Counted from the stretch's first letter, positions 2,796 to 63,881 are shown. The stretch: 63,998 nucleotides of DNA from an uncultured Gammaproteobacteria bacterium (GCA_964348825.1 CAYGDX010000005.1:1-63998); one strand, 5' to 3'. A program made the numbers and translations. Notes: generated by a model not told the origin, from the sequence alone.

Positions 2796-3026
2796 GTGAA
2801 GTCTTTCAGCGAACGAGTCAAGCCATTCCTCATACATCTTGAAAATTGCAATGGCTGCGTAGGCAAAAGAAACCCTAGCAACTGTAAGTTCGCCTTGGAA
2901 TGCTCCGTGACAGAAGTTTTAAGCAGAAGGGGGCTGATAACTAATTCTAAAGAGTTGTTGCTTTATAGCAGTAATCATCGTAGCACTGGTTATTTTCCCG
3001 AGGGATGTGTTAGCACCGATTTCTAA
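2796..3026 (+). CDS. Cys-rich small protein; possibly the N-terminal part of the following 3D-domain gene
   Basis: GTG start 2 nt after previous stop. CxxC..C..C pattern. Overlaps the 3007 ORF in another frame. Confidence 0.4.
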   Translation: MKSFSERVKPFLIHLENCNGCVGKRNPSNCKFALECSVTEVLSRRGLITNSKELLLYSSNHRSTGYFPEGCVSTDF

Positions 3027-3402
3027 GCCTGTGAAGGTTAATGTTAGTCGGAGTGTTGCGGAGGTTGTTGAGCGTAGGGTGATGGTTTGCACGGCATATA
3101 CAGCAGGATTTGAAAGCACCGGAAAAGTCCCATCCGATTCAGATTATGGTCAAGTGGCAATCAGTACGCCTAATAATCCTGTTTACGCTAAAGAATGGTA
3201 CACGATTGCAGCACCACCAAGTATTCCGATAGGGACGAAAATCTATATTCCTTATTTTGTGGACAAGCCCAATCGTGGGGTGTTTGTTGTGGAGGATAGA
3301 GGTGGACAAATTAAGGGCGATAGGTTGGACGTATTTATGGAGAAGCGTGAGGATGCCTTGGAATTTGGGAAAAGAGATTTGGAAGTTTGGGTGAGGTATT
3401 GA
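3007..3402 (+). CDS. 3D domain protein (MltA/YuiC-like cell-wall-binding or lytic fold)
   Basis: CTAYTAGFESTGK...GTKIYIPYF...VVEDRGGQIKGDRLDVFM matches the 3D domain signature. Confidence 0.7.
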   Translation: MLAPISKPVKVNVSRSVAEVVERRVMVCTAYTAGFESTGKVPSDSDYGQVAISTPNNPVYAKEWYTIAAPPSIPIGTKIYIPYFVDKPNRGVFVVEDRGGQIKGDRLDVFMEKREDALEFGKRDLEVWVRY

Positions 3403-3409
3403 GGGGAGG

Positions 3410-4798
3410 GTGAAAGTGTACAACGAGATTGTTGTTGATAATTTTTGCGGAGGTGGGGGAGCTTCTACCGGAATATCCTTAGCAATCGGCAGATCGATAG
3501 ACATAGCCATAAACCACGATCCTGCCGCAATAGCCATGCACAAGGTCAATCATCCGGACACAAGGCATTATAACGAATCGGTTTGGGAAGTTGAACCTCT
3601 CAAAGTAGCGAACGGTAGGCCGGTAGCCTTGGTTTGGTTAAGTCCGGATTGTAAACATTTCTCCAAGGCCAAGGGTGGAAAACCTGTTGAAAAGAGCGTT
3701 AGGGGCCTAGCGTGGGTAGCTGTCCGATGGGCGGCAACGGTAAAGCCTCGGGTGATTATACTCGAAAATGTTGAGGAATTTAAAACATGGGGGCCGCTAC
3801 TTAAAAACGGAATGCCCGACACTAAGCAGAGAGGGAGAACATTCAACGCATTTGTTAACGCACTTAAAAAACAAGGATATCACGTTCAGCATAGAGAGTT
3901 AAGGGCTTGTGATTACGGAGCACCGACGATTCGCAAACGGTTTTTCCTTGTTGCAAGATGTGACGGACAACCGATTTCATGGCCCAAGCCAACTCATGGA
4001 GATCCAAGAAGTACAGATGTTATTGCCGGTAGACTAAAGCCATGGAGAGTGGCCGCCGAGATAATAGATTGGTCGATACCTTGCCCATCAATATTCGAAC
4101 GCAAGAAACCCCTGGCAAGTAACACGCTAAGCCGCATAGCAAGGGGAACCCAAAAGTTCATCATCAACGACACTAATCCTTTCATAGCACCAATCAATTT
4201 CGATGCTAATGATCATTCAGGACAGGTCGCGTCATTTCTAATTAGCTACCATTCTGAAACAACCGCACATGAGGTAAGGGGATTAAGTCTAGATGGGCCT
4301 ATTCACACAATCGATGCCTCCAATAGATTTGCCCTTGTATCTGCTTTCGTCGTCCAAAACTACAAAACATCAGTAGGCCAACCACTTAATAATCCCTTGA
4401 ACTCAATAACGACAGTTAATAAAGCGAGTCTAGTTACAGCATTCTTAATAAAATACTATGGTTCGGATTTGGGACAAACGCTTGATGGGCCATTACACAC
4501 AGTGACCACAAAAGACAGATTCGGATTAGTCACGATTCATGGGCAGGATTTTCAAATTATGGATATCGGAATGAGAATGTTGAAACCCCACGAACTGTTT
4601 GCGGCACAAGGATTTCCCCTCGATTACATCATTGACCGTGATTCGGAAGGCAAGGCATATCCGCTAACTGAGCAAACGGCAAGGTGCGGCAATGCAGTTC
4701 CTCCACCATTCGCGGAGCATCTTGTTAGGGCAAATTTACCCGAGCTATGCGACAGGAACCCAATGGGAATACCACAGCAACTAGCCTTATTTCATTAA
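3410..4798 (+). CDS. DNA (cytosine-5) methyltransferase
   Basis: Motif I DNFCGGGG, motif IV SPDCKHFS, ENV (ILENVEEF), motif VIII CDYGAPTIRKRFFLVA, motif X GNAVPPP. Confidence 0.9.
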   Translation: MKVYNEIVVDNFCGGGGASTGISLAIGRSIDIAINHDPAAIAMHKVNHPDTRHYNESVWEVEPLKVANGRPVALVWLSPDCKHFSKAKGGKPVEKSVRGLAWVAVRWAATVKPRVIILENVEEFKTWGPLLKNGMPDTKQRGRTFNAFVNALKKQGYHVQHRELRACDYGAPTIRKRFFLVARCDGQPISWPKPTHGDPRSTDVIAGRLKPWRVAAEIIDWSIPCPSIFERKKPLASNTLSRIARGTQKFIINDTNPFIAPINFDANDHSGQVASFLISYHSETTAHEVRGLSLDGPIHTIDASNRFALVSAFVVQNYKTSVGQPLNNPLNSITTVNKASLVTAFLIKYYGSDLGQTLDGPLHTVTTKDRFGLVTIHGQDFQIMDIGMRMLKPHELFAAQGFPLDYIIDRDSEGKAYPLTEQTARCGNAVPPPFAEHLVRANLPELCDRNPMGIPQQLALFH

Positions 4799-4815
4799 GA
4801 AAGGAACTAAAAAAA

Positions 4816-5169
4816 ATGGATAAATACCAAATCGCTGTCTACAATGCCCTGCGAAAGTTAGGTATCCCTGCACATGTTAAGGGGTATGAGTTTTTGAAAT
4901 CCGCAATGAAAATCATCAACAAAGACACTCAATCTATCTTCTCAATGATGAAGCTCTATGAAGCAGTAGCTAAGGAACATGACACAACGGATAAGAAGGT
5001 TGAGAGAGGTATCAGACACGCCATTAGTCTTATTAGGGCTGATGATGCAGGGCAGTATTCGGTGCTAGGAAAAACAGGGCATTTGGCTAATAGGGAGTTT
5101 TTATCTACTCTCAACGAAAGCATAAAGCTGATGTTGGCGACTGAGGAAAGTCTGGCTGAGGCGAAATGA
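4816..5169 (+). CDS. Spo0A C-terminal (DNA-binding effector) domain-only protein
   Basis: GIPAHVKGYEFLKSAM and TTDKKVERGIRHAISL parallel B. subtilis Spo0A GVPAHIKGYLYLREAI and TTASRVERAIRHAIEV. No receiver domain. Confidence 0.8.
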   Translation: MDKYQIAVYNALRKLGIPAHVKGYEFLKSAMKIINKDTQSIFSMMKLYEAVAKEHDTTDKKVERGIRHAISLIRADDAGQYSVLGKTGHLANREFLSTLNESIKLMLATEESLAEAK

Positions 5170-5400
5170 AGAAACCAAAAGACCCACACCTTTACGATCC
5201 CCTTTAGTGGGGTTGCAAGGATTGAGGGAGAGAACACCTCCCAATAGTTTGACAAACCTACTTAGTCAGTAGATCCGTGAAAGTGCATATTCGTAGCATA
5301 AAAACCTTATGGAGTCGCGTTACCGTAAGTCAAAACGGGGCATGGGTAGCTTGTAAGGTTGCCGACTTGATGTGTAAAAATCATCAAGAAGGTAGTAAGG

Positions 5401-6141
5401 GTGGAACAAAAGCACATAGTAATGTTTTCCGGCGGTGCTGCAAGTTCGGTAGTCGCCAAGATGGTTGCAGATAAATTTCCGAACGATACAATTTTACTCC
5501 ATACTCCAGCAGGAGCAGAACACAAGGATGCGGATAGATTTAGGGAGCAAGTCGCAAAGTTTATAGGATTGCCAATAACGGTAGAATCGGCAAGCAAAAC
5601 GCTTTGGGAGTTAGTTGAGAGTAGGAAATATCTTCCCACAAACAACCTTCCATTCTGCACAACAGAACTTAAATTAATCCCAAAGGATAGATTCTTAAAG
5701 CGTTATGAAAAACAGGGAATTGACTTCATTCAATACTTAGGGTTGGGCGTTGATGAATGGCGAAGAATTCAGAAAGTATGGGCCAGAAATCAACAAGACG
5801 GTCGCAAGGTTGAATTTCCCCTCATGGATGCAAGGCTAACCGGAGCAGATTGCCAAAGAATTATCCGCGAAGAATGGAAAATTTGTTTACCTCAACCATA
5901 TATGTACCTTAGCCATAACAATTGCATTCCATGTTACAAGGGTGGTCAAGCTCATTGGTACAAAGTCTGGAAACACTATCCAGAAGAGTTCGGCAGAGCA
6001 TTAAGGGCAGAGCGTAAAGCTGAAAATACTGTTTTTAATGGGATTAGTCTTGAGGAACTTGCTAAAAAGTGGACAAATGAGCCAGATCAGATGGACCTGT
6101 TTGGAGATCAAGAAGGCATACCTTGTATGTGTGCATTGTAA
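5401..6141 (+). CDS. PP-loop ATPase, PAPS-reductase-like family
   Basis: N-terminal IVMFSGGAASSV PP-loop (SGGxxS). C-terminal CIPC pair. GTG start after AAGGTAGTAAGG. Confidence 0.65.
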   Translation: MEQKHIVMFSGGAASSVVAKMVADKFPNDTILLHTPAGAEHKDADRFREQVAKFIGLPITVESASKTLWELVESRKYLPTNNLPFCTTELKLIPKDRFLKRYEKQGIDFIQYLGLGVDEWRRIQKVWARNQQDGRKVEFPLMDARLTGADCQRIIREEWKICLPQPYMYLSHNNCIPCYKGGQAHWYKVWKHYPEEFGRALRAERKAENTVFNGISLEELAKKWTNEPDQMDLFGDQEGIPCMCAL

Positions 6142-6152
6142 GGAGTGAACCC

Positions 6153-6344
6153 ATGAACCAAAACGTTTACGAAACCCTAAACGAAGCTCGAAAAAAGCTA
6201 TTCGATATACAGACTTCATATGCAGCTAAAGATGATGTTTTAAGGCTTGAGTTGGATATTGTTGCAATGGCTGTAGACGATTCGTTAGATGAATTGGATC
6301 GGTTGGGGAAGAGGATTAGGGAATTAGAGAGTGGAGGGAAATAA
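6153..6344 (+). CDS. Hypothetical coiled-coil protein
   Basis: ATG 6153 preceded by AAGGAG; 63 aa. Confidence 0.5.
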   Translation: MNQNVYETLNEARKKLFDIQTSYAAKDDVLRLELDIVAMAVDDSLDELDRLGKRIRELESGGK

Positions 6345-10523: not shown

Positions 10524-11267
10524 ATGAATCTTAAAGTTATCGGAAGTTCTAGTAAGGGTAATGCCTACGTTTTAGAGTCACCAACCGGGAAACTTCTCCT
10601 AGAGTGCGGTTTTTCTAACTTTAGGATTATCAAAGAAGCGTTGAATTACGACTTAAAAAGCGTAAAAGGATGCCTACTCACGCATTCTCATTCCGATCAT
10701 TCTGCCTCAATTTACTATGTTTGTCGTAACGGTATTGATATCTATATGACGCAAGAAACAGCAAATGCAACAGGGGCTAAAGGACATCGAGTAAACATCA
10801 TTGAATCCGGCAAGCATTTTGATGTAGGAGACTTCACCTGTCTCCCCTTCCCCACCGAACACGACTGCCCCGGATCGGTTGGATATTTAATCTACTACAA
10901 ACCAACAGGCGAAAAGCTGATTTTTGCAACAGATACCTATTTCATTCGTAATCGCTTCAAGGGATTAGATTATATCCTTTGCGAGTGCAATTACTGCAAA
11001 GATACCTTAGACTACAACATCGAAAACGGATACATCGCTCAAGGCATGAAAAACCGATTACTCGAAAGTCACTTTTCGCTCGAACACGTTAAAGAATTTT
11101 TATCTGCAAATGACTTATCAAAAGTGAAAGTGATAGTTCTTCTTCATCTCTCCTATCACAATGCAGATGCAGGGAGAATGATTCGAGAGATTAGTGAATT
11201 GACAGGTAAGATAGTTGTTATTGCTGAGGCTGGGAAGGACATTCCGTTAGAGCAATTTCCATTTTAG
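10524..11267 (+). CDS. Metallo-beta-lactamase fold hydrolase (probable recombination exonuclease)
   Basis: HSHSDH motif (HxHxDH) plus downstream H/D ligands. Confidence 0.85.
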   Translation: MNLKVIGSSSKGNAYVLESPTGKLLLECGFSNFRIIKEALNYDLKSVKGCLLTHSHSDHSASIYYVCRNGIDIYMTQETANATGAKGHRVNIIESGKHFDVGDFTCLPFPTEHDCPGSVGYLIYYKPTGEKLIFATDTYFIRNRFKGLDYILCECNYCKDTLDYNIENGYIAQGMKNRLLESHFSLEHVKEFLSANDLSKVKVIVLLHLSYHNADAGRMIREISELTGKIVVIAEAGKDIPLEQFPF

Positions 11268-22458: not shown

Positions 22459-22894
22459 CTGACTAGCACAAAAATAGCACAGGACTAGCATACAAATATT
22501 TGTTTATAAGCAAAACTCACTATATACTGAAAATGTGGACAATCACCTAGATTTAATTTTTAGGCGGCTGTCCACTTTTATTTGTTTAAATGGGGGGTGT
22601 TTTGATGTGGGAACGTGCTTGCAATTCATGGCGGCATGGGAAAGTAAATATGAGAACTGCTGTACCTGCATCAAATGGAACCGAGATGACTTAGTTTGCA
22701 TGGATCCTGCAGAAGTAGTAAAGCGTCGAAGGGAATCGGAACTTAGGGTTATTAATAAAATGATTCGTGGTAATAAGCCGATACGGGGGCCATTGTAAGT
22801 TAGAAGATGAGCACCATCTAAAACCCTTGGTACACAAGGGCTTAGGAGTATTTTGACCCATAAAAATGGGTATTCTGAGCTCGTTGTTTTGGGC

Positions 22895-22923
22895 AAGAAA
22901 AAAGACCCTCGTTTGAGAGTCTT
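22895..22923 (-). terminator. Intrinsic terminator of the minus-strand operon
   Basis: On the minus strand, GACTCTC-AAAC-GAGGGTC followed by TTTTTT. Confidence 0.55.
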
Positions 22924-23069
22924 AGCTAGAGTGATACTTTTTATATGTGCCGAAATTCCTCCACATGAAGAACTGGGGCTTTTCGTAGATACTCCAATAT
23001 CCCCAATGGCCTTGATAGACTCCCTCGGGAACTGATGGACAAGAATTGATTTTCATTATTATTCCTCCT

Positions 23070-23957
23070 TCATTTATTGATATCTAGCTTTAGAAAATCG
23101 CCAACCTTTTTATTTTGTCCGTGCATATAAACTTGGGTTGTCATAATCGACTTATGATTTAGATATTCCTGCACGTCCCGAATGTCTGCACCTGCACTTA
23201 ATGCGTTCGAGCAAAATGAGTGCCTCAAGGTATGAGGTGTTACCGATTTCGTGATCTTAGCTCGCTTGCTTGCCGAAACAATCCATGACCTCAAGGTAAC
23301 CACAGATGCCCTGTCACCGCTTGGATTGCTGAATAAGTGTGATTGGTCGAAGTTGTTTATTTCCTTGCCTGTATAGGCTTGTATGGCTTCCCACACGTCG
23401 TTGCGAAGTGCTAAGAGCTGGCGTTCGTTGCCCTTTCTTAGTGCTGATACGCTGATGGATTCATCTGGCATGATGTAGAAGTCTTTCCAGCTTAGTTGTT
23501 GTACTTCGCTTATTCTCATTCCAGTGCTTGCAAGGAGTAGACCTAAGATAAAATGCTTTTCGCTTTTTTGCTTTAAGGCTGTCAGTAGCTTATCGATTTC
23601 CTTAGTTGTTAAGAATTTATTCGCTACGTTGCTAGGGGAGCCGTGCTGCTTAATTAAGGCGAATGGGTTTTTGTCAATCAATCCGCATTCCATCGCAAAT
23701 TTGAAAAACATCTTTAGTGTGGCAATTCTGTTTTGAACTGTCGCGGTTGAGCAAGTGGCCTTTAAGTATGCGTCATAATCTAGGGCTTGAAATGGTGTAA
23801 TGGTCCGGTAGTCCTGGTTGTTGGTCCATGCAAAGAAGCCCTTTAAGACACTAGCGTAGGTTTTAGATGTGCTGGGGGTTTGTTGTGATAAGTAGTAGTT
23901 CACTACATCGGATGTCGGCATTATGGCGAGTTTGGCTGATTCCGCTGATACTAGCAT
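23070..23957 (-). CDS. Tyrosine recombinase, short XerC/XerD-like (295 aa)
   Basis: Catalytic pattern GMRISE (R), HTLRHSF (HxxR), HKSIMTTQVYMH (H..Y). SAM-like core-binding N-domain. No arm-binding domain. Confidence 0.9.
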   Translation of the reverse strand: MLVSAESAKLAIMPTSDVVNYYLSQQTPSTSKTYASVLKGFFAWTNNQDYRTITPFQALDYDAYLKATCSTATVQNRIATLKMFFKFAMECGLIDKNPFALIKQHGSPSNVANKFLTTKEIDKLLTALKQKSEKHFILGLLLASTGMRISEVQQLSWKDFYIMPDESISVSALRKGNERQLLALRNDVWEAIQAYTGKEINNFDQSHLFSNPSGDRASVVTLRSWIVSASKRAKITKSVTPHTLRHSFCSNALSAGADIRDVQEYLNHKSIMTTQVYMHGQNKKVGDFLKLDINK

Positions 23958-23969
23958 AACAATTCCTCC

Positions 23970-24224
23970 TTAATCCTTTTCGCTATAGTCATGGGTTATC
24001 TGACCGTCGAGGACCTTGTAAATATCCCTAGTGAGTGAATCCTTGGCAATAACTACGAGTTCCCAACCTAGATTATTCTTAGACATACGGAAACTTTTTG
24101 CTTCAATTTTTGGCATTGAGTAATAGTCAAAAGACACGTTTCCAAGGTTAGATATCTCGCATTGATTGATTAATCCTATGATGCGGTTTCGAGTGGTTAG
24201 GTCAAGTTTGTGATATGGTTTCAT
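23970..24224 (-). CDS. Hypothetical protein
   Basis: 84-aa ORF after AAGGAGGAATCAGCGGA. Confidence 0.55.
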   Translation of the reverse strand: MKPYHKLDLTTRNRIIGLINQCEISNLGNVSFDYYSMPKIEAKSFRMSKNNLGWELVVIAKDSLTRDIYKVLDGQITHDYSEKD

Positions 24225-24349
24225 TCCGCTGATTCCTCCTTAGCTTCAAAATTTAAACAATATCCCAGGTTGTCAATTTCAATAGTACAACAGTTGCAAA
24301 AACTAAATAATAAATACTTGCAATTTTTTCTATCACATGAGACTAGCAT
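24221..24349 (-). CDS. Small Cys-rich protein (42 aa)
   Basis: Hand-translated MLVSCDRKNCKYLLFSFCNCCTIEIDNLGYCLNFEAKEESAE. AAGGAGG SD. ATGA overlap with the next gene. Confidence 0.45.
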   Translation of the reverse strand: MLVSCDRKNCKYLLFSFCNCCTIEIDNLGYCLNFEAKEESAE

Positions 24350-24434
24350 GATTTATTCCTCCTTAGCTTATTCCTTCGCCTTCGTCCCTTACCTAGTTTA
24401 AGGACCAAAGGCGGGAGAATAAACTCCCTGGGGT

Positions 24435-24617
24435 TTACCTTAATATCACGTTTTTGCGTTCGTTGTTTGTCGAATCCAAGATAATGTATCTGCCTTCAAA
24501 TTCTCTATTGAATTCTCTTCGAGCTAGGGCAAAACTTGTAGTATTAATGGTCTTGAATAGGCAACCTTCAGTATTAATTAGTTCATAGGTCTTGATTTTC
24601 TCTTCATACTTTTTCAT
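24435..24617 (-). CDS. Small hypothetical protein
   Basis: 60-aa ORF after GAAAGGTGG. Confidence 0.5.
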   Translation of the reverse strand: MKKYEEKIKTYELINTEGCLFKTINTTSFALARREFNREFEGRYIILDSTNNERKNVILR

Positions 24618-24642
24618 TTTTATTTTCCACCTTTCAATTTTA

Positions 24643-24666
24643 CGCCGGTATATGCCCCGGCTGGCT
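24643..24666 (-). repeat. Conserved intergenic hairpin, copy A
   Basis: Minus-strand reading AGCCAGCCGGGGCATATACCGGCG, stem GCCGG/CCGGC, just upstream of an SD. Confidence 0.8.
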
Positions 24667-24715
24667 AATTTGTTTTACTTCGAGTTTGGGGAGTGATTCC
24701 CCTGCTTATCGTCAC

Positions 24716-24940
24716 CTAGTTAACTTCCTTGTAGTGAAACAGTTTAAGTGTGTCAACGAATGCCTTTTCTGTTTTGTGTCCTATCCCTTGAATAGTGTGC
24801 TCCCATGTTGAAAATGCTTTGTTTGTTCGGAGGTCAAAGATTTCATTTAAAACATTTTCACCTTCGATTGTGACTCGTTCGAGGATTGGATTGGCGAAGA
24901 GTAAACGATTGTGTTCAAAGATTCGTTTCATTGCTTTCAT
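24716..24940 (-). CDS. Small hypothetical protein
   Basis: 74-aa ORF after GAAAGGA. Confidence 0.5.
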   Translation of the reverse strand: MKAMKRIFEHNRLLFANPILERVTIEGENVLNEIFDLRTNKAFSTWEHTIQGIGHKTEKAFVDTLKLFHYKEVN

Positions 24941-24945
24941 CCTTT

Positions 24946-24971
24946 CGCCGGGCTATAGCTCCCGGACCGCT
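24946..24971 (-). repeat. Conserved intergenic hairpin, copy B
   Basis: Minus-strand reading AGCGGTCCGGGAGCTATAGCCCGGCG, stem CCGGG/CCCGG. Confidence 0.75.
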
Positions 24972-24987
24972 TAATGTTTTTTGCGTG

Positions 24988-25296
24988 TTAGTCCAATAAC
25001 GATTCGCGAGATATCGAATACTGAGTTTTCAGCTTGTCGAGTGCTAATGATGTTGCCGTGTAGCTGTACCATCCGACGAGGTATTGACCGGATTCGGTTA
25101 GGTCCTCGCTGGCGTATTGCTTCCTAAGTTTGATTCCCCTGCCCTTTAATTCAAGCGGGGTGTCGATATAGTAGGTTCCGTAGTGGCCTATTGTTACTCT
25201 CATTTGGCAGTTAGGCTTGCACTGTCCCATTTCAGGGGTGTAGGCGTGGACGCCTTTTGCGATTCTATCGGCTGGGAATTCTAGGACTTTAGCCAT
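24988..25296 (-). CDS. Hypothetical protein
   Basis: 102-aa ORF after GAAGGAGGAAAAGC. Confidence 0.55.
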   Translation of the reverse strand: MAKVLEFPADRIAKGVHAYTPEMGQCKPNCQMRVTIGHYGTYYIDTPLELKGRGIKLRKQYASEDLTESGQYLVGWYSYTATSLALDKLKTQYSISRESLLD

Positions 25297-25312
25297 TTTG
25301 CTTTTCCTCCTT

Positions 25313-25336
25313 CGCCGGATTAAGCCCCGGCTGGCT
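25313..25336 (-). repeat. Conserved intergenic hairpin, copy C
   Basis: Minus-strand reading AGCCAGCCGGGGCTTAATCCGGCG, stem GCCGG/CCGGC, abutting GAAGGAGG. Confidence 0.8.
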
Positions 25337-25341
25337 TTGTA

Positions 25342-25572
25342 TTACTCGAAAGATAAGTTTATGTTGCCTGAATCCTTTTGGTATCTGTACCAATTGAGCA
25401 TTGTCACGAAGTCACCTGCGCTTATGCTGTATGGTATTTCCTTTTGGCCTTTGCTGTCGAGGGTGGTTACATATACTGGGCCGTCATTTCTTGCTTGGAA
25501 TACTTCGATTGTTTGACCATTATTTACTTCGAAATTCATTCTCATTCTAATTCCTTCTTTCATCTTCTTCAT
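25342..25572 (-). CDS. Small hypothetical protein
   Basis: 76-aa ORF; the true start may be an internal Met. Confidence 0.5.
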   Translation of the reverse strand: MKKMKEGIRMRMNFEVNNGQTIEVFQARNDGPVYVTTLDSKGQKEIPYSISAGDFVTMLNWYRYQKDSGNINLSFE

Positions 25573-25622
25573 TCGCTCACGTCCCTAAGTTTTAGAGATA
25601 TGAGCGAGGGAAGAAATTCCCT

Positions 25623-25766
25623 CTAGTCAACTTGATTGATGGTTATTGCGGTGTGACCCCAAAATCTCCTAGCCTCTGCAATCTTGTTAGCTGAACTCAG
25701 AGTATTGGTAAAAGTGATTTCCATACAGTTGCAAGTGTTGACGCTTCTGACTTCGTAGTGTTTCAT
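25623..25766 (-). CDS. Small hypothetical protein (47 aa)
   Basis: Hand-translated MKHYEVRSVNTCNCMEITF...; GGAAGGA SD. Confidence 0.4.
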   Translation of the reverse strand: MKHYEVRSVNTCNCMEITFTNTLSSANKIAEARRFWGHTAITINQVD

Positions 25767-25783
25767 TTGGTGTTCCTTCCTTT

Positions 25784-25942
25784 CTATTGGTGAGTTGCTA
25801 AGTAGGTTTCCTCTGTTGCCTTTTCGCCTTCATGCAGCTTGCCATAACATGTGCAGTTCATTTCCTCACGGTGTCCACATTTGACATACCTTCCAGCTAA
25901 TACCCACGCTTGATTGATGTAGTCGAACCATTCATTTGTCAT
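25784..25942 (-). CDS. Small Cys/His-rich protein (52 aa)
   Basis: Hand-translated MTNEWFDYINQAWVLAGRYVKCGHREEMNCTCYGKLHEGE...; AAAGGAG SD. Confidence 0.45.
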   Translation of the reverse strand: MTNEWFDYINQAWVLAGRYVKCGHREEMNCTCYGKLHEGEKATEETYLATHQ

Positions 25943-26025
25943 TGTTTTGCATCTCCTTTGTTTATACTTCCGTCTAAACTAGCTAGATAGTTAGCTTAGA
26001 CGAGAGCATAAGCTCTCAGGATACC

Positions 26026-26316
26026 TTATTTTTCTATTTCAAATAGTCTATGACCTTCTGGGAAAATCCTGTCCTTTAGGTAGATTCTCGCGCCATACTC
26101 AAGACTCCCATAAGCTGGACGGCAACCCCCATCGGTCCATTTAATAGCGGGTTGAATGGAGATAACCTGAGACTTGTCAAAGTAGCTTACTGAAATATTT
26201 GTAATTTGGAGTGAGTTATACTCGTTTGGGTGAATTACTTGGTCCATGTTGCCTAAAGTTCGGGATATGTCATTAGCGGAAATACCTAATGTGGGTAAAT
26301 ATTCAGTTATTGTCAT
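26026..26316 (-). CDS. Hypothetical protein
   Basis: ORF 26026..26337. Met at 26316 follows AAGGCGAGGA. Confidence 0.55.
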   Translation of the reverse strand: MTITEYLPTLGISANDISRTLGNMDQVIHPNEYNSLQITNISVSYFDKSQVISIQPAIKWTDGGCRPAYGSLEYGARIYLKDRIFPEGHRLFEIEK

Positions 26317-26494
26317 TGTTGTTTTCCTCGCCTTCAATGTTTTATTTGATGTGTTAACTATAACATTATAACATCACAACGTCAAGTATTTAACAAACAT
26401 TTATATTCTGCTATAAATCCAGTGTTCATGCGGTTCTTAAGGCTTTTCGTTACAATTGGTTAAAAATTCTTTTCAGAAAAGATAAGTTTTTAGA

Positions 26495-57050: not shown

Positions 57051-57713
57051 TCATATCAACAACGGCAATAACTTAAAGGCCATCAACGCCATCCCTGCCA
57101 ACGTCAACGTATTCCCGAACAAAACTACAGCTTGAGTCGTATCATCAGATGTTGGAATCTCTGCTGGAACAGGCGGTCTATCTGGCAGCTCATTCTTATC
57201 CGTGAGATTATTCTTGATGACCTCCAAGTATTTCTCAAAGTTGTCATTGTCCCTAAAGTGTTCGCCTATCTCGATTCTGACCTTTTCCTTGATGGAGTCT
57301 GAGGTTATTTCTCGTTCATAGGTGACAGAATCCCTCGGTACATATTTCCCCGTTCCTCCGCTACTTATTTTCTTGCCGATTCGTGCTGTGATATATTTGC
57401 CAAGGTTATTTCCCAAGAACATAGCTTGACTAATTCCATATCCCTCGGGCAATCCGATCACTATCTGCTTATCAATCATCTTGCTCCACATGGCAAGGTT
57501 ATATGCTCCAAGTTCAGGATTACTTTCTGACCAAAATAGGGAGGTCTGAGAGGGGTTGTTGGATGGATAGGGGTAGAGATAGTATAACGAACTCTCGTTG
57601 GCTTGAGAGAGGTTTGGGAAGCTGAGGGAGAGTCCAACCATGATTAGTAGGATGGATAGGGCTAGGCTTCTTTTGATTGAGGATTTACGTAGGACTATGA
57701 ACATTTCGATCAC
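57051..57713 (-). CDS. Secreted protein with C-terminal membrane anchor
   Basis: N-terminal signal/TM LALSILLIMVGLSLSF and C-terminal TM AVVLFGNTLTLAGMALMAFKLLPLLI. Confidence 0.6.
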   Translation of the reverse strand: MIEMFIVLRKSSIKRSLALSILLIMVGLSLSFPNLSQANESSLYYLYPYPSNNPSQTSLFWSESNPELGAYNLAMWSKMIDKQIVIGLPEGYGISQAMFLGNNLGKYITARIGKKISSGGTGKYVPRDSVTYEREITSDSIKEKVRIEIGEHFRDNDNFEKYLEVIKNNLTDKNELPDRPPVPAEIPTSDDTTQAVVLFGNTLTLAGMALMAFKLLPLLI

Positions 57714-58444
57714 TCCTTCATTAATGGTCGTGGGTCAATCGCTTTTCCACCAACTCTAATTTCCATATGCAAATGTGGGCCTTTAGAATTCCCTGCTCCT
57801 TGCGTACCTTTCGTTCCTCCACTTAAACCAACTTGAATAGAATTACCCCACAGTCTATCTCCCTTCTTAACTGCAACCTTTGACAGATGAGCATAGAGTG
57901 TTTGCCATCCAGTACCATGTTCGACTAAAACGTAGTTTCCATAAACCTCATGCAATCCGACAACGGCAACCTTTCCTTCGCGTGATGCCTTGACGATAGT
58001 TCCCTCTTTGCAATCAATATCAATTCCATGATGCTCCGTTCCCTTGAACTCTTGAGTGATGGTTCCCGATAGTGGATAGTTGAAGCGTATTGTTGATGGC
58101 CTGAGTTTTTCGTATAAGGAAATGCCCGGGGGGTATTTACTCGCACCAACTCCAGCGAAGGGAATATTCTCCTTTTCCTCAGTCCATGAAGTAACTGCGT
58201 CAACAACTCCTACGGCCTTCTCTACACCGTTCTTTGTCTCAGTATAGGCAATGCTAAGGTCGTGAACATCATCGGCAACACGGGTTAAGTATGGGCCTAC
58301 AGTACCAACTATAGTCAAGGCTACTCCTGCCCAAAAAAGATACTTAACAATATGCTTTGAACTTGGTAGGGCAATTTCGACAAATACTCTGACTAATACA
58401 TAGAGGGCAGATAATCGGATTAAATCGGTAATCATTTGGGCCAC
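57710..58444 (-). CDS. Membrane-anchored M23 (LytM) peptidoglycan peptidase
   Basis: Two N-terminal TMs. Catalytic HHGID (HxxxD) and HLH (HxH) motifs. Confidence 0.85.
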   Translation of the reverse strand: MAQMITDLIRLSALYVLVRVFVEIALPSSKHIVKYLFWAGVALTIVGTVGPYLTRVADDVHDLSIAYTETKNGVEKAVGVVDAVTSWTEEKENIPFAGVGASKYPPGISLYEKLRPSTIRFNYPLSGTITQEFKGTEHHGIDIDCKEGTIVKASREGKVAVVGLHEVYGNYVLVEHGTGWQTLYAHLSKVAVKKGDRLWGNSIQVGLSGGTKGTQGAGNSKGPHLHMEIRVGGKAIDPRPLMKE

Positions 58445-58656: not shown

Positions 58657-59356
58657 TGTGCGTCAACTCCTTCTGTCGATATTCCTCCCTCTTTTTAAGT
58701 GCAATTCTCCAGCAAAGTTCTCTGAGCTTATCGAGTTGATAGAATTCTAATCTGACGTTTTTCATGTTTGATAGTTCTTTGAGTAGTTGCTCCTTGATGT
58801 TGTCATAGGGGCCGGTAGTGACTACGGTTAATGATAGATATTGATCTTGAGCGAAGGTTTCAAATAATGCTCGATAGTTTTTGTTCCAACGATTTGATGA
58901 TTCATTTACTTGGAATTCACCAAAACAGTAAATGCTACCGTAAACTTTGTGGTCAATGACTCCATAGCAATCAGAGATGGGAAGGGTTTTGTTTTTCTCA
59001 TAAAATCTCCTTTCCTCTGATTTGAAATAGGTTAGCGTTTGATTGCCTTGAGAATCAAGTGCTTTTAAGTTCCATGCTGTATAAATCCATGATTTGCCTA
59101 GCCTGTGCTGAATTTGGTCTGGACGTTTTGAGTCGTAATCATGGAACCAATCGGGCATATCGGACCATTTCATTTCAACTCGTTTGATGAGCTTATCTTC
59201 GACTAAACGCTTAGTGCATCGGTGAGACATTTCGGTTGAGACATTCCAAAACTCAAGTAAATGTATTTGCTCCTGCGACAAGACGCTGCAAGCTTCGAGA
59301 TGGGCTAGAACTCGTTGATCTCGCTTCCTTCCTCGGGCGTGGGTAGAAGGGTTCAT
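58640..59356 (-). CDS. Replication-relaxation family protein (putative relaxase-like)
   Basis: RDQRVLAHLEACSVLSQEQIHLLEF...RCTKRLVEDKLIKRVE winged-helix start typical of the family. GAGG SD. Overlaps the ftsK-like 3' end by 104 nt. Confidence 0.6.
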   Translation of the reverse strand: MNPSTHARGRKRDQRVLAHLEACSVLSQEQIHLLEFWNVSTEMSHRCTKRLVEDKLIKRVEMKWSDMPDWFHDYDSKRPDQIQHRLGKSWIYTAWNLKALDSQGNQTLTYFKSEERRFYEKNKTLPISDCYGVIDHKVYGSIYCFGEFQVNESSNRWNKNYRALFETFAQDQYLSLTVVTTGPYDNIKEQLLKELSNMKNVRLEFYQLDKLRELCWRIALKKREEYRQKELTHNGKSG

Positions 59357-60611
59357 GTTCGTATACCTCGCCTTCTATGTCGTGGTAGGGGAGTGGGGTT
59401 TTTGGGAGTTGGGACATAAGCTGATGGAATTGTTCGGGCTGTTTATTCTCGGTAGGGAAATAGGGTGTCTGAACTTCTTCCTCTGTATCGTATTTGTAGA
59501 TTGCTCTACCTGGTGTCTTGGGAATATTCGCAGCCTTATCGCTCTCTAATATCATTTGGCTGTTAATTCTATCGGACATTCGGAAAGCTAAACGTGCTTC
59601 GAATTGGCTTTTGAACTCAGTAAATAGTTTTCCGTTTCCCCAGGCTTTTGCGGAAGGTCGTTGGGTAGCTGCTATAACATAGATTCCTTGCGAACGATAT
59701 TTCTTGACTGACCTCAGAAGCAATTCAGCACAATATTTATCTTCGCCAACCATGTCGCATTCGTCCACAAGTAGCACACAATAGGGCATATGATTTCCCT
59801 TGATGGAATTGTACTCAAGAATATCCCTGCACCGTCCTAGCTTGTTTTTACGCTCCTTGTCTGATTTGTCGATAAGGTATAGGAGTTGAGTGTAATCCCA
59901 TTCTTCATGGACGAATGTGGCTCCGTAATCCTCGAAGTATTCAAATTCCTTATTCTTTGGTCCGATAATAGCTGTCTGAACATAATCTCTTTTGGTGAGT
60001 TTATTTAGAAGTAAAAGGGTGTAAATAATTTGGTGCATTGCTGTAGATTTGCCTTTACCTCTAAGGCCTACTATTAATAACGAGTAGATAACTGCCAAGT
60101 CTTGCACGATAGGACCGTTTGCACCGTGACCAATAAGGATGGGGAGCTTCATTGTTTTCAGATAAGGCGTTGGGTCAAATGCGTAGGTGTAGGATTTTTC
60201 TAGGGCAATGTTTGAGATGGTCATGTAGGTGGCTCCACCGTTATGTTCAATTTCGCAAGAACCACCAACCGCAGTAGCGAAGAAATGCTCTTTTCCCTTA
60301 AAGTCCTCATACGAGATTCCCGGTGGTAAGTGAATAACCAAATGCCAAGTCTGCTTTAGTTTTGGTCTGACTTTTAGCCAATAGATAATTTCTTGGGGAG
60401 TTAGTTTTTTTGGGATGATAGGCTTTAGGCTTTGCTTTTCTTTTGGGGAGAGTAGAGTTTTTTTGTGTATGAACGGTTTGAGTGGAGCTTTAGCATAGAG
60501 GATTTCAATAGAATCATAGACAGCAGATGGAATTTCGGAATCCGGGCCACGATAGATAGCTCTCATAAAACCATCTTTTAGTTGGTCAACGAAATCATTA
60601 TGCTTTTTCAT
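59253..60611 (-). CDS. FtsK/SpoIIIE-family DNA translocase / coupling ATPase (no TM segment)
   Basis: Walker A GLRGKGKST, Walker B VLLVDECDM, IAATQRPS motif. Confidence 0.85.
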   Translation of the reverse strand: MKKHNDFVDQLKDGFMRAIYRGPDSEIPSAVYDSIEILYAKAPLKPFIHKKTLLSPKEKQSLKPIIPKKLTPQEIIYWLKVRPKLKQTWHLVIHLPPGISYEDFKGKEHFFATAVGGSCEIEHNGGATYMTISNIALEKSYTYAFDPTPYLKTMKLPILIGHGANGPIVQDLAVIYSLLIVGLRGKGKSTAMHQIIYTLLLLNKLTKRDYVQTAIIGPKNKEFEYFEDYGATFVHEEWDYTQLLYLIDKSDKERKNKLGRCRDILEYNSIKGNHMPYCVLLVDECDMVGEDKYCAELLLRSVKKYRSQGIYVIAATQRPSAKAWGNGKLFTEFKSQFEARLAFRMSDRINSQMILESDKAANIPKTPGRAIYKYDTEEEVQTPYFPTENKQPEQFHQLMSQLPKTPLPYHDIEGEVYEHEPFYPRPRKEARSTSSSPSRSLQRLVAGANTFT

Positions 60612-61017: not shown

Positions 61018-61070
61018 TTATGCACCAACAAAGTTGTCCTAAAACAAAAAGGGGGAAATATATTTTGAAG

Positions 61071-62690
61071 ATGGATGCTTTTTATGGACGTAACTCTACG
61101 GATGAACAAGCCGAGAAGGGAACGATTGACGCACAGATTGATTATGCTAAAAAATACTTTAATTTAAACGACATTACCGATTACGAAATGTATCTTGATG
61201 AAGCAACGTCTGGAACGATTGCACTAAGCAACAGGGAAAATGCCTCTAAGATGCTAGAGGATGCGAAACGTGGGAAGATTAAGACTGTTTATGTTTATCG
61301 CTTGGATAGATTAGCAAGAAGTGTGAAGCATGTTTTAGATACCTATGAATTCTTAGAATCCTATAATGTACGTCTTGTTAGCATGACCGAAGCCTTTGAC
61401 ACTGGCACACCTACGGGTAAGTTCTTTATGACTCTTCTAGCGAGTATAGCAGCACTTGAGAGAGACACAATCTTAGAGAGGACACAAATGGGCAAGGATC
61501 GTAACGCAAGGGCTGGAAAGTGGGTTTCTGGAGCTTCGCCGTTTGGTTATCGCATAGGGGATGACGGAAAGCTCGTTATTTATGATCCAGAAGCGGAAAC
61601 GGTGAGGCTCATATTTAAGCTTTACTCTGAGGGAATGACCATGTTTGAGTTGGCAAAATATCTTAATGCTAAGGGAGTGGAAACCCCTGCAACATCTAAG
61701 AAAACAAAGGGAGTAAGCACAGGGAAATGGCACGCAGGACACATTTCTATTGTTCTCAAAACAGAAGCATATACAGGAATTTACGGATATCTTCAACGTT
61801 CAAAACGCAATAGAGATATTATCGAGGTCGACGTTCCGATGCTTATTGATGTAGAAACTTTTAACGAAATACAAAAGAAAATTCTTATCAATGCTGATAG
61901 TGCAAGAGGAAAGAGGGGGAGACTGTACTTGCTTCGTGGAGTTATATATTGCGGTCATTGCGGAAGGGCTATGATAGGTAATGCAGCAGGAACCAATCGC
62001 TCCTATTATCGCTGTACGGCTACAAATGATCAGGGGCAGGGTAAAACTTGCACAGCTAAACAAATAAAGGCTACAAGCATAGAGAATGCCGTGTGGGACG
62101 ATATATTGGAGATAGTAAGGTATCCGGAACAATTCAGGGAGTATGTAGAAAGATCGATTGCCAATACTAAAAAGGTAATGGAACCTATATACGATGAATT
62201 ATCGGAAGTGGAGGAATCGATTACTAAAAAGCAAAAGGCGAAAGAAAGAATTCTCTCATTAATTAACAGGGATATGGTTTCCGATAAGGATGCAGAAAAG
62301 GAACTCAAATCTATTTCCTTGGAGCTAAGGTCGCTGACTTCACGCAAGGAGCATTTATTTGAGCAACAGGAAAAATCAAAGTCGATTGAAACGGAAACGA
62401 TAAACTCACAAGTTGTATTTGACTACATTCTTAATCAATCGGAGATTCTTGATCCGGTGGTAAAGTCTCGAATTGTCCGTGGTCTTGTTAAGAAGATAGA
62501 AGTATTCACCATTGAGCAAGAAGACGACAAAAGGGGAAATAGAGCCGTTATATCTTATCGCTTAGGTCGTAGTTTGGAGTTAAGTCTTTTAAGAGATACT
62601 AGAACACAAACTACACTTCCAAATATAGAAAGCACCTGGGAGTTCCAGGCGTTTTCTAGACATGGAGGGCATAGAATCAGATGGCGGTAG
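61071..62690 (+). CDS. Large serine recombinase
   Basis: FYGRNSTDEQ catalytic Ser region, resolvase domain, recombinase domain, zinc ribbon CGHCG...YYRC, coiled-coil. Confidence 0.9.
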   Translation: MDAFYGRNSTDEQAEKGTIDAQIDYAKKYFNLNDITDYEMYLDEATSGTIALSNRENASKMLEDAKRGKIKTVYVYRLDRLARSVKHVLDTYEFLESYNVRLVSMTEAFDTGTPTGKFFMTLLASIAALERDTILERTQMGKDRNARAGKWVSGASPFGYRIGDDGKLVIYDPEAETVRLIFKLYSEGMTMFELAKYLNAKGVETPATSKKTKGVSTGKWHAGHISIVLKTEAYTGIYGYLQRSKRNRDIIEVDVPMLIDVETFNEIQKKILINADSARGKRGRLYLLRGVIYCGHCGRAMIGNAAGTNRSYYRCTATNDQGQGKTCTAKQIKATSIENAVWDDILEIVRYPEQFREYVERSIANTKKVMEPIYDELSEVEESITKKQKAKERILSLINRDMVSDKDAEKELKSISLELRSLTSRKEHLFEQQEKSKSIETETINSQVVFDYILNQSEILDPVVKSRIVRGLVKKIEVFTIEQEDDKRGNRAVISYRLGRSLELSLLRDTRTQTTLPNIESTWEFQAFSRHGGHRIRWR

Positions 62691-63070: not shown

Positions 63071-63469
63071 TTATTCACCTGCCTCTTCGTCCTCCACTAT
63101 TTTAATGTATCTTATTATACGTTTAATAGTTTCTTTTTTGAGGGGTCTTACTTGTTTGAATAATAATTTCAATTCATCCCTCTTTGATAAATCTTTAAAA
63201 AAGGAGAGTAATTCCTCATCGCCCTCCAATGCAAGGGCTATTTTTTTTATTGGAGAATCATTATTATCCTTTCCGTGGAGAATGTAATCGGTAGATACTT
63301 CGAGCAGATTGGACAGTTTGGGTAATTCCTCTGAATCGACAGGAGTATAACCTCGTTCCCAATTTGAAAGGACTTGGCGAGATACACCGATTTTGTCAGC
63401 AAGTTCTTGTTGCTTGAAACCACGGCGATCACGTAAGTCACGTATTCGATTTCCGACTGCATTAATCAT
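63071..63469 (-). CDS. CI-like XRE-family repressor
   Basis: IRDLRDRRGFKQQELADKIGVSRQVLSNWERG HTH plus C-terminal oligomerisation region. Confidence 0.85.
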   Translation of the reverse strand: MINAVGNRIRDLRDRRGFKQQELADKIGVSRQVLSNWERGYTPVDSEELPKLSNLLEVSTDYILHGKDNNDSPIKKIALALEGDEELLSFFKDLSKRDELKLLFKQVRPLKKETIKRIIRYIKIVEDEEAGE

Positions 63470-63635: not shown

Positions 63636-63881
63636 GTGATTAGGGACAATGTAAGGGACATAAGGGAAGCTAAAGGGATTACTGGAAGTCATGTTGCAGA
63701 AAAAATAGGCTTTACCCCGCAGGGATATCGTCATATTGAAAAGGGTAATTCTCGACTACAGGCCGAAACACTTAAGTCTATTGCTGTAGTATTAGAGGAA
63801 CCAGTATCAGTTTTTTTTGATCGAGAACAAACGGAATCCGTACTACAGAGGATTGGCGGTGAGGTCAAATGTACGAAATAG
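63636..63881 (+). CDS. Cro-like XRE-family regulator
   Basis: IREAKGITGSHVAEKIGFTPQGYRHIEKG HTH; GTG after AAGAGGTG. Confidence 0.8.
   Translation: MIRDNVRDIREAKGITGSHVAEKIGFTPQGYRHIEKGNSRLQAETLKSIAVVLEEPVSVFFDREQTESVLQRIGGEVKCTK

Follow-up and report, generated by a model that had tools for sequence, protein, structure and literature searches.

The window analysed here, the whole 63,998-nucleotide (nt) stretch of DNA CAYGDX010000005.1:1-63998 (GCA_964348825.1), deposited under the name of an uncultured Gammaproteobacteria bacterium, is the sequence of a temperate tailed phage, free or integrated. At 4816..5169 on the plus strand it contains a gene for a stand-alone Spo0A_C protein of 117 amino acids (aa), that is, the effector or DNA-binding domain of the sporulation regulator Spo0A. 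The gene starts with ATG at 4816 and stops with a TGA ending at 5169; the ATG lies 17 nt past the stop of a C5 DNA methylase gene, and a ribosome-binding site, AGGA, was read in the sequence at 4802..4805 on the same strand, 10 nt upstream of the ATG. Another in-frame ATG at 4747, giving a protein of 140 aa, was rejected as the start because it overlaps the methylase gene and is not used by the homologues, whose N-termini (MDKY, MSKY or MTKH) fall at the position equivalent to 4816.

Product of the Spo0A_C gene

It was originally predicted, from alignment by eye, that the protein corresponds over its whole length to the C-terminal domain of Spo0A, and profile and structure searches agreed. Residues 8-102 matched positions 1-103 of the 104-position Pfam profile Spo0A_C (PF08769) with 69.7 bits and an E-value of 2.4e-19, the Pfam cut-off being 25 bits, and a PDB sequence search returned the Spo0A C-domains 1fc3 and 1lq1 as its sole matches (E about 2e-12). 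The AlphaFold2 model, built with 18 homologues, had a predicted local distance difference test score (pLDDT) of 94, a predicted template modelling score (pTM) of 0.85 and seven helical segments, and it shows the six-helix fold with helix-turn-helix of the 1lq1/1fc3 type. Through Foldseek comparison with the PDB, the model was superposed on 1lq1_D with template modelling (TM) scores of 0.82/0.89 and a root-mean-square deviation of 1.5 Å, and at E < 1 seven chains of 1lq1 and 1fc3 were returned and nothing else. Both signature motifs were found: residues 18-24 read PAHVKGY and residues 62-69 VERGIRHA. The three motifs quoted in the original prediction were all found as well, GIPAHVKGY aligning with GVPAHIKGY, VERGIRHAI with VERAIRHAI and NREFL with NSEFI of Bacillus subtilis Spo0A, whose C-domain reference sequence is identical to 1lq1. 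The overall identity with the cellular Spo0A C-domain is about 30%. Comparison of the gene with a 74%-identical homologue (locus L003) gave 0.21 for the nonsynonymous rate (dN), 1.84 for the synonymous rate (dS) and 0.11 for dN/dS, indicating that it is under purifying selection.

The protein begins at the equivalent of residue 150 of B. subtilis Spo0A, the start of the effector domain, and it has no N-terminal receiver with a phospho-acceptor aspartate. The window was searched for receivers in its six frames, the queries being 31 receiver domains of Spo0A, of which that of B. subtilis had been verified against the PDB Spo0A receiver entries; tblastn gave a best E-value of 0.16, not significant, and a hidden Markov model (HMM) built from the 31 domains gave no match. 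A split gene with a separately encoded receiver was therefore rejected, and the absence of the phosphoacceptor domain claimed in the original prediction holds for the whole window. Being carried in a phage early operon, the gene is also not the single-copy chromosomal gene of a spore-former that a bona fide spo0A is; it lies on a viral genome and aligns to the effector domain alone with the receiver absent, two marks of an effector-only phage spo0A homologue. We confirmed in this way that the product is the Spo0A effector domain only, a small phage-encoded DNA-binding protein.

Recognition helix and activation region

Exhaustive profile search yielded 14,517 cluster representatives with Spo0A_C at E <= 0.001, and 30 full-length proteins whose N-terminus is receiver-like and whose only Spo0A_C domain is C-terminal were taken from it as the authentic set. 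Their C-domains were aligned with 15 sequences of the clade to which the window protein belongs (the window clade) and 11 of a second stand-alone class. In B. subtilis numbering, the positions 100% invariant in the authentic set included G165, P167, A168, H169, K171, G172, Y173, R177, T194, K195, L197-P199 and T207, and further S210-A219, E221, W224, R226, G227, F236, G237, K246-N249, E251-I253 and D258; Y238 and T239 were nearly invariant among the 30 representatives.

The DNA-reading part of the domain was kept in the window clade. The PAHVKGY signature loop (residues 18-24, codons at 4867..4887, plus strand) carries P167, A168, H169, G172 and Y173, which are invariant or nearly so in all three sets. 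The predicted recognition helix (residues 59-71, codons at 4990..5028, plus strand, KKVERGIRHAISL) is a helix in the model, and its E63, R64 and R67 correspond to B. subtilis E213, R214 and R217, which we take to be the base contacts and which reportedly contact bases in the Spo0A DNA complex. Together with G23 and Y24, these E, R and R residues were invariant in 18/18 aligned sequences. The profile alignment proposed along with the original prediction thus showed no loss of recognition-helix residues: R214 and R217 (R64 and R67) were 100% conserved in the authentic, window-clade and second-class sets, and E213 (E63) in 100% of the authentic set, 93% of the window clade and 100% of the second class. 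Besides the PAHxKGY loop, the window clade keeps L197, Y198 and, in the reading helix, V212, E213, R214, I216, R217 and A219, with A215 replaced by G in 100% of its members.

The following region was remodelled. Residues 72-91 (B. subtilis 226-248; codons at 5029..5088, plus strand), delimited by the alignment and the model, show in the model a loop of 7 residues and a short helix (77-84) in the place of helix alpha-E and the loop after it. R226 and G227 fall in a gap in 93% of the window clade and Y238-M242 in 100%; F236 became L, K246, P247 and T248 were lost (KPT changed to HLA in the window protein), and W224 and E221 were lost or changed. The region of residues 226-248 is the conserved sigma-A-activating region of bona fide Spo0A, and the window protein has not conserved it; residues 227-240, helix alpha-E and the next loop, are what we take to be the activating part, as was reportedly shown for B. 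subtilis Spo0A. A literature search for assignments of the Spo0A DNA-contact residues or of the sigma-A-activating region found no citable open paper. In the second class (P0010-P0016, L018, L021 and others) this region is kept and reads RG..FGYT..GKPTNSEF.

Three further positions were changed in the window clade: H162 to R in 87%, D258 to E in 93%, and A257 to N in the window protein, N being the commonest residue there in the clade (47%). In B. subtilis, the substitution A257V abolished activation of spoIIA and spoIIG and kept repression of abrB, and H162R and L174F counter its effect (PMC9195935). Taken together, the alignment points to a window clade with the DNA-reading head intact and the predicted activation surface removed.

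Phage genome, early operon and host

The claim that the gene is phage-encoded was borne out by its surroundings: the same 64-kb window encodes a large terminase, a portal, the major head protein and tail proteins, two recombinases of integrase type (one a tyrosine, the other a large serine recombinase), an FtsK-like protein and a CI/Cro switch. Other Pfam matches in the window were a Rha antirepressor, a 3D-domain protein, the C5 methylase, a PAPS-reductase-like protein, RecT and an MBL-fold protein, and it also encodes an SbcC-like ATPase, SSB and an endonuclease VII-like protein. No tRNA genes were found in the window.

The lysogeny switch consists of a CI-like helix-turn-helix (HTH) repressor at 63071..63469 on the minus strand (Pfam HTH_3, E 3.7e-17; Phage_CI_repr, E 2.5e-7) and a Cro-like HTH gene at 63636..63881 on the plus strand (HTH_3, E 2.2e-9), likely the start of the rightward early operon; the pair is divergent and adjoins the large serine recombinase gene. 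If the genome is circular or permuted, this operon would run from the Cro-like gene across the window boundary to Rha, Spo0A_C and the recombination and replication genes. The Spo0A_C gene lies between the Cro and antirepressor genes and the recombination and replication genes, and its position in a rightward operon with Rha, RecT and SSB makes early expression a reasonable inference. No sigma-70-like promoter or intrinsic terminator was found beside the gene, and the description as an early phage product in the original prediction therefore stands as a deduction from position.

The phage sequence was present in four metagenomic DNA runs of one study, and no RNA runs with it were found. By megablast, no close DNA relative was found among 50,697 deposited phages, in which the terminase relatives are at most 29% identical. 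A search of metagenomic proteins gave named terminase relatives in metagenome-assembled genomes (MAGs) of Clostridiaceae (54% identity) and Thermincolia (52%), and because of these relatives the host was probably an uncultured member of Bacillota.

Several other features of the genome were observed. Between the replication and packaging modules, the run of plus-strand genes is broken by a minus-strand block (22543-26337) with the tyrosine recombinase at 23070-23957; the large serine recombinase, at 61020-62690, is present besides. The block may have been inserted as an element, or it may be a second system for recombination. The MBL-fold protein at 10524-11267 adjoins RecT, and its homologue in locus L030 has a weak Pfam match to the anti-Pycsar nuclease Apyc1, so that it could be an anti-defence cyclic-nucleotide phosphodiesterase and not a recombination nuclease. 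The window also contains genes of, or related to, the kinds of phage "sporulation genes" listed by Schwartz et al. 2023 (mBio, PMC10294663), namely the PAPS-reductase-like gene (yitB class) at 5401-6141, an M23 peptidase at 57710-58444 and the FtsK/SpoIIIE-like protein at 59253-60611.

Homologues, conserved gene order and cassette

A word-indexed search found 17 relatives, all of them short proteins with Spo0A_C only, and IMG/VR held 19 further loci encoding relatives. Fourteen deposited gut contigs named "Bacteriophage sp." carry a homologue, with at most 46% identity to the window protein, and UniProt/BFVD lists six viral proteins named "Spo0A C terminal". The closest genome match of the protein, in an alignment-based genome scan, was an unclassified Bacillota MAG, the other match being one Erysipelotrichaceae chromosome; a genome scan with the single protein gave no match.

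The position of the gene is the same in about 20 other viral contigs and prophages. L003 and L007, the two loci that extend far enough upstream, have on one side an integrase, a CI-like repressor, Rha or Bro, and another small gene across the switch, which is of HTH_3 Cro type in L007 and without a Pfam match in L003. Downstream of Spo0A_C come, in each of the five mapped loci (L003, L004, L007, L027 and L030), genes for Gp157, AAA, SbcC-like, RecT, ERF, SSB or PD-(D/E)XK proteins. A Pfam census of up to four neighbours per side at 19 loci gave the same picture, with HTH, Bro, Rha, 3D and methylase upstream and AAA_23/SMC_N, RecT, ERF, Gp157, SSB and PD-(D/E)XK downstream.

A cassette of small genes travels with the Spo0A_C gene. 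It includes a 115-aa open reading frame (ORF) at 2447-2794, conserved together with Spo0A_C in the window clade, and a 76-aa Cys-rich ORF (CxxC...C...C) at 2796..3026 on the plus strand, with homologues upstream of Spo0A_C in six loci. In one relative (P0005) the Cys-rich homologue (45% identity, E 2e-12) is fused in frame to the Spo0A_C domain, and this fusion occurs on 14 contigs. The third member, a 131-aa 3D-domain protein at 3007..3402 on the plus strand (Pfam 3D, E 5.6e-13), has homologues upstream of Spo0A_C in four loci (L001, L008, L011 and L030), and in L030 the 3D-domain gene is directly adjacent to and overlaps the Spo0A_C gene. Downstream, a 73-aa ORF at 6123-6344 has homologues in four loci. 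The small cassette ORFs had no Pfam or PHROG match. The C5 cytosine DNA methyltransferase gene just upstream of Spo0A_C (3410..4798, plus strand; Pfam DNA_methylase, E 1.3e-26) has no homologue in the other compared cassette loci, and together with the PAPS-reductase-like gene it is an insertion relative to the syntenic locus L030.

Two other arrangements of the domain were observed. Spo0A binds tandem 0A boxes as head-to-tail dimers, and tandem proteins with 2 to 5 Spo0A_C domains were frequent in the exhaustive search (P0019-P0064), most of them without a receiver-like N-terminus; P0019, for example, has four Spo0A_C domains in 439 aa. Given the dimer binding, such covalently linked repeats are an intriguing architecture. 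On the Erysipelotrichaceae chromosome of Massilicoli timonensis (NZ_LT963434.1, locus L002:7965-8348), a stand-alone Spo0A_C protein has large neighbouring ORFs, and the glycosyltransferase, EpsG, Polysacc_synt and epimerase matches of the pooled neighbour census were attributed to this locus. It would be a polysaccharide-biosynthesis cluster rather than a prophage if that attribution holds.

0A boxes and the conserved non-coding block

The consensus 0A box TGTCGAA occurs 7 times in the window, with 7.3 expected, and the degenerate box TGNCGAA 44 times, with 28.5 expected. Among the 44 degenerate sites, 41 are coding and 3 intergenic, and 18 of the 26 sense-strand matches stand in the frame xxT-GNC-GAA; this enrichment was therefore rejected as a regulatory signal and regarded as a codon effect. 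In the related loci pooled, TGTCGAA was found 50 times against 33 expected, and because the degenerate box shows the same 1.5-fold excess, this too was ascribed to codon usage. L030 alone has 6 TGTCGAA sites against 1.0 expected, scattered inside genes. A k-mer search of intergenic DNA found no 0A-like word enriched, and the enriched words were ribosome-binding-site-like or AT-rich. The box counts in the window and related loci thus give no good evidence of a phage-borne 0A regulon.

Directly after the Spo0A_C gene comes a non-coding gap of 231 nt (5170..5400, plus strand) that is unusually conserved. Its nucleotide identity with the corresponding stretch L027:2511-2754 is 79%, with invariant blocks of 33, 32 and 23 nt, whereas the proteins on either side reach no more than 67% and 29% identity between the two. 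The block is absent from most relatives (L003, L008, L001 and L030), and exact-pattern scans of IMG/VR and JGI metagenomes found no further copies. A structured RNA is one possible identity of the block, a regulatory region another. A hairpin in it, GGGAG-agaacac-CTCCC, reads CTGTG-ataacac-CACGG in L027, so that three of five pairs were changed on both sides with pairing kept; the block also holds a CCCC-TTTAGT-GGGG hairpin, TTGACA and the palindrome CTACT-TAGTC-AGTAG. Its folding z-score was only -1.4, and no Rfam match was found in the window or in the gap.

Proposed function and alternatives

We propose that the protein, rather than activating, competes or represses at the 0A boxes of the host independently of phosphorylation, a reading we favour while judging it somewhat short of an even chance. 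Its DNA specificity, the host as its target and the sign of its effect are what we infer from the conserved residues. The original prediction had left open whether the product would force or block the host programme; blocking or competing is more likely than forcing sporulation because the recognition helix is kept and the sigma-A-activating surface is deleted or changed. The absence of any excess of 0A boxes on the phage, and a reading helix frozen while the rest has drifted to about 30% identity, indicate a target beyond phage co-evolution and favour the host 0A boxes.

In the proposed course of events, the protein would be made with the early lytic genes after infection or induction, as its operon position suggests. 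Without a receiver it could not be held inactive, and because that domain is absent the phosphorelay would be unneeded. The isolated Spo0A DNA-binding domain binds its legitimate targets without phosphorylation (PMC3485338), which agrees with what the original prediction had stated as established. With its near-identical DNA-reading helix the phage protein would most likely bind 0A-box-like (TGTCGAA-type) sites on the host chromosome, and, with the sigma-A contact surface and the positions tied to sigma-H promoter activation deleted or replaced, would occupy 0A boxes without activating spoII-type promoters. By competing with or replacing phosphorylated Spo0A, it might keep the infected cell from the Spo0A-driven sporulation and stationary-phase programme during phage replication. 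For the window protein this predicts 0A-box binding, abrB-type repression, no spoII activation and a dominant-negative effect on sporulation, and the second phage class, with the activation region kept, provides a natural comparison set.

We might further speculate, and as a whole we consider it somewhat unlikely, that there are two functional classes of phage Spo0A_C, the window class being a self-pairing, repressor-only mimic of Spo0A that works with partners of the early cassette and blocks sporulation in lytic growth. Here the sigma-A-activating helix and loop would have been excised with the DNA-reading helix frozen at the cellular sequence. The positions implicated by A257V and H162R would have been re-matched (H162 to R and D258 to E in most of the clade, A257 to N in about half), which would lead the protein to pair with itself rather than with host Spo0A. 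The Cys-rich protein, fused to it in one lineage, and the 3D-domain protein would be its partners.

Several points weigh against a repressor or competitor at host sites. E213, R214 and R217 are presumed base contacts, and residues 227-240 the presumed sigma-A-activating region, by what is reported for B. subtilis. A215 is Gly throughout the clade, and on the backbone side T194 became M, S210 became K and R211 became K in the window protein, and because of these differences the DNA specificity may have shifted. The remodelled region shows moderate conservation of its own in the clade (VLGRTG...NGEF), and it may form a new surface for interaction, perhaps one that still activates. The conserved block at 5170-5400 could be a phage-borne target of the protein. 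A host that sporulates and has 0A boxes is presumed in this reading. In the literature searched, no binding, expression or phenotype data were found for any phage Spo0A_C.

If the target lay on the phage itself, the protein would be an early regulator of transcription or replication, binding sites on the phage genome such as 5170-5400 and controlling recombination, replication or later genes. We consider this unlikely, even with a gene that stands between the switch and the replication genes, the usual position of a regulator, and with a following block that travels with the gene, is more conserved than either flanking protein and holds TTTGACA, one mismatch from the reverse-complemented 0A box. 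The surplus of TGTCGAA in L030 and in the pooled loci points the same way; against it, the window has no such surplus, its degenerate boxes follow the coding frame, the pooled excess equals that of the degenerate box as codon usage would have it, no 0A-like motif is enriched in intergenic DNA, and the block is missing in most relatives. A self-contained regulator and its sites could also co-evolve, yet the recognition helix stays cellular. A related possibility, which we regard as very unlikely, is that the protein is a shield that displaces or pre-empts phosphorylated host Spo0A on phage DNA and so averts a shutdown of early promoters and replication of the phi29 type. Spo0A represses phi29 promoters and replication via phage 0A boxes (PMC2731898), and a non-repressing look-alike could relieve this; in the window phage, however, 0A boxes are neither in excess nor promoter-proximal, and a protein on the same sites would be expected to repress too.

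The opposite effect on the host can also be imagined. The sad67 allele and the isolated B. subtilis C-domain are models of a constitutive activator, and a phage protein of this kind would switch on the Spo0A regulon regardless of nutrient signals, pushing the infected cell to sporulation or stationary phase and the phage genome into the spore. The activity of the isolated C-domain without phosphorylation (PMC3485338; also Ireton 1993 and Grimsley 1994, as cited by Schwartz et al.) and spore entrapment as a known phage strategy (phi29, PMC2731898) speak for it, as does the activation region RG..FGYT..KPTNSEF kept in the second class (P0010-P0016, L018 and L021). In the window clade, the sigma-A-activating residues invariant in authentic Spo0A are deleted or changed and A257 is Asn, and co-transcription with lytic replication genes conflicts with a programme that directs the cell into spore formation; an activator is here quite improbable. 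That the gene is a functionless, decaying fragment of a captured host gene, as a truncated version of a cellular gene might be, was effectively refuted by the selection and conservation data and has next to no probability: dN/dS is 0.11 with synonymous sites near saturation, the stand-alone family holds a conserved position in many phages, and the start, ribosome-binding site and full fold are intact. Repression of or competition at host 0A boxes was therefore kept as the preferred reading, since the recognition helix is retained and the activating surface is not.

Comparison with known systems

Homologues of this kind have been recorded before. Schwartz et al. 2023 (PMC10294663) described 29 virome spo0A homologues in phages that align to the effector domain only and proposed that they may act without host signals, and Jiang et al. 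2019 (PMC6907783) reported PF08769 as enriched in mobile elements of gut Firmicutes. The gene class was thus already described in gut phages in 2023, with the same function hypothesis, and because these records precede it our finding is a correct rediscovery. The window gene shares with the homologues of Schwartz et al. the effector-only architecture on a viral contig. A relative of the window gene (P0007) comes from a groundwater metagenome, which differs from their source, and the family is therefore not confined to the human gut. The split of the activation region into two classes is not mentioned in the available portion of Schwartz et al., nor are the fixed early-operon position and the Cys-rich/3D cassette in those of Schwartz et al. 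and Jiang et al.; on this basis, all three are modest additions to the published record.

Compared with the cellular Spo0A C-domain of B. subtilis or Geobacillus stearothermophilus (1lq1, 1fc3), the window protein has the same six-helix fold, PAHxKGY loop and VERxIRHA helix. It differs in having neither receiver nor linker, in lying outside the chromosomal spo0A locus and in being shorter by a net 7 residues across helix alpha-E and the loop after it. Like B. subtilis Spo0A A257V, it has a residue other than Ala (Asn) at the equivalent position with the DNA-reading helix intact, and it carries Arg at the position of H162R, the substitution that counters A257V (PMC9195935). Unlike the window protein, A257V is a point mutant of a full-length, phosphorylation-dependent Spo0A.

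Sporulation is both a refuge from phages and a transmission route for gut and soil Bacillota. If the proposed function is true, a phage protein acting on the master regulator's own sites, independently of signals, would be the most direct viral override of the sporulation decision known, and such proteins could give compact, phosphorylation-independent tools to switch off Spo0A regulons in Bacillus and Clostridium. Other phage-borne devices, including sigF/sigG homologues, Rap-Phr, spo0E-like and abrB-like genes and YqaH of the skin element, are likewise predicted or shown to alter entry into sporulation. Those devices act on Spo0A phosphorylation, on later sigma factors or through protein-protein contact, whereas the window protein would act at the DNA sites of Spo0A. 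In phi29 and Nf, too, the life cycle is linked to DNA recognition by Spo0A (PMC2731898); in their case the sites are on the phage and the protein comes from the host, whereas the window phage carries the protein and has no excess of sites.

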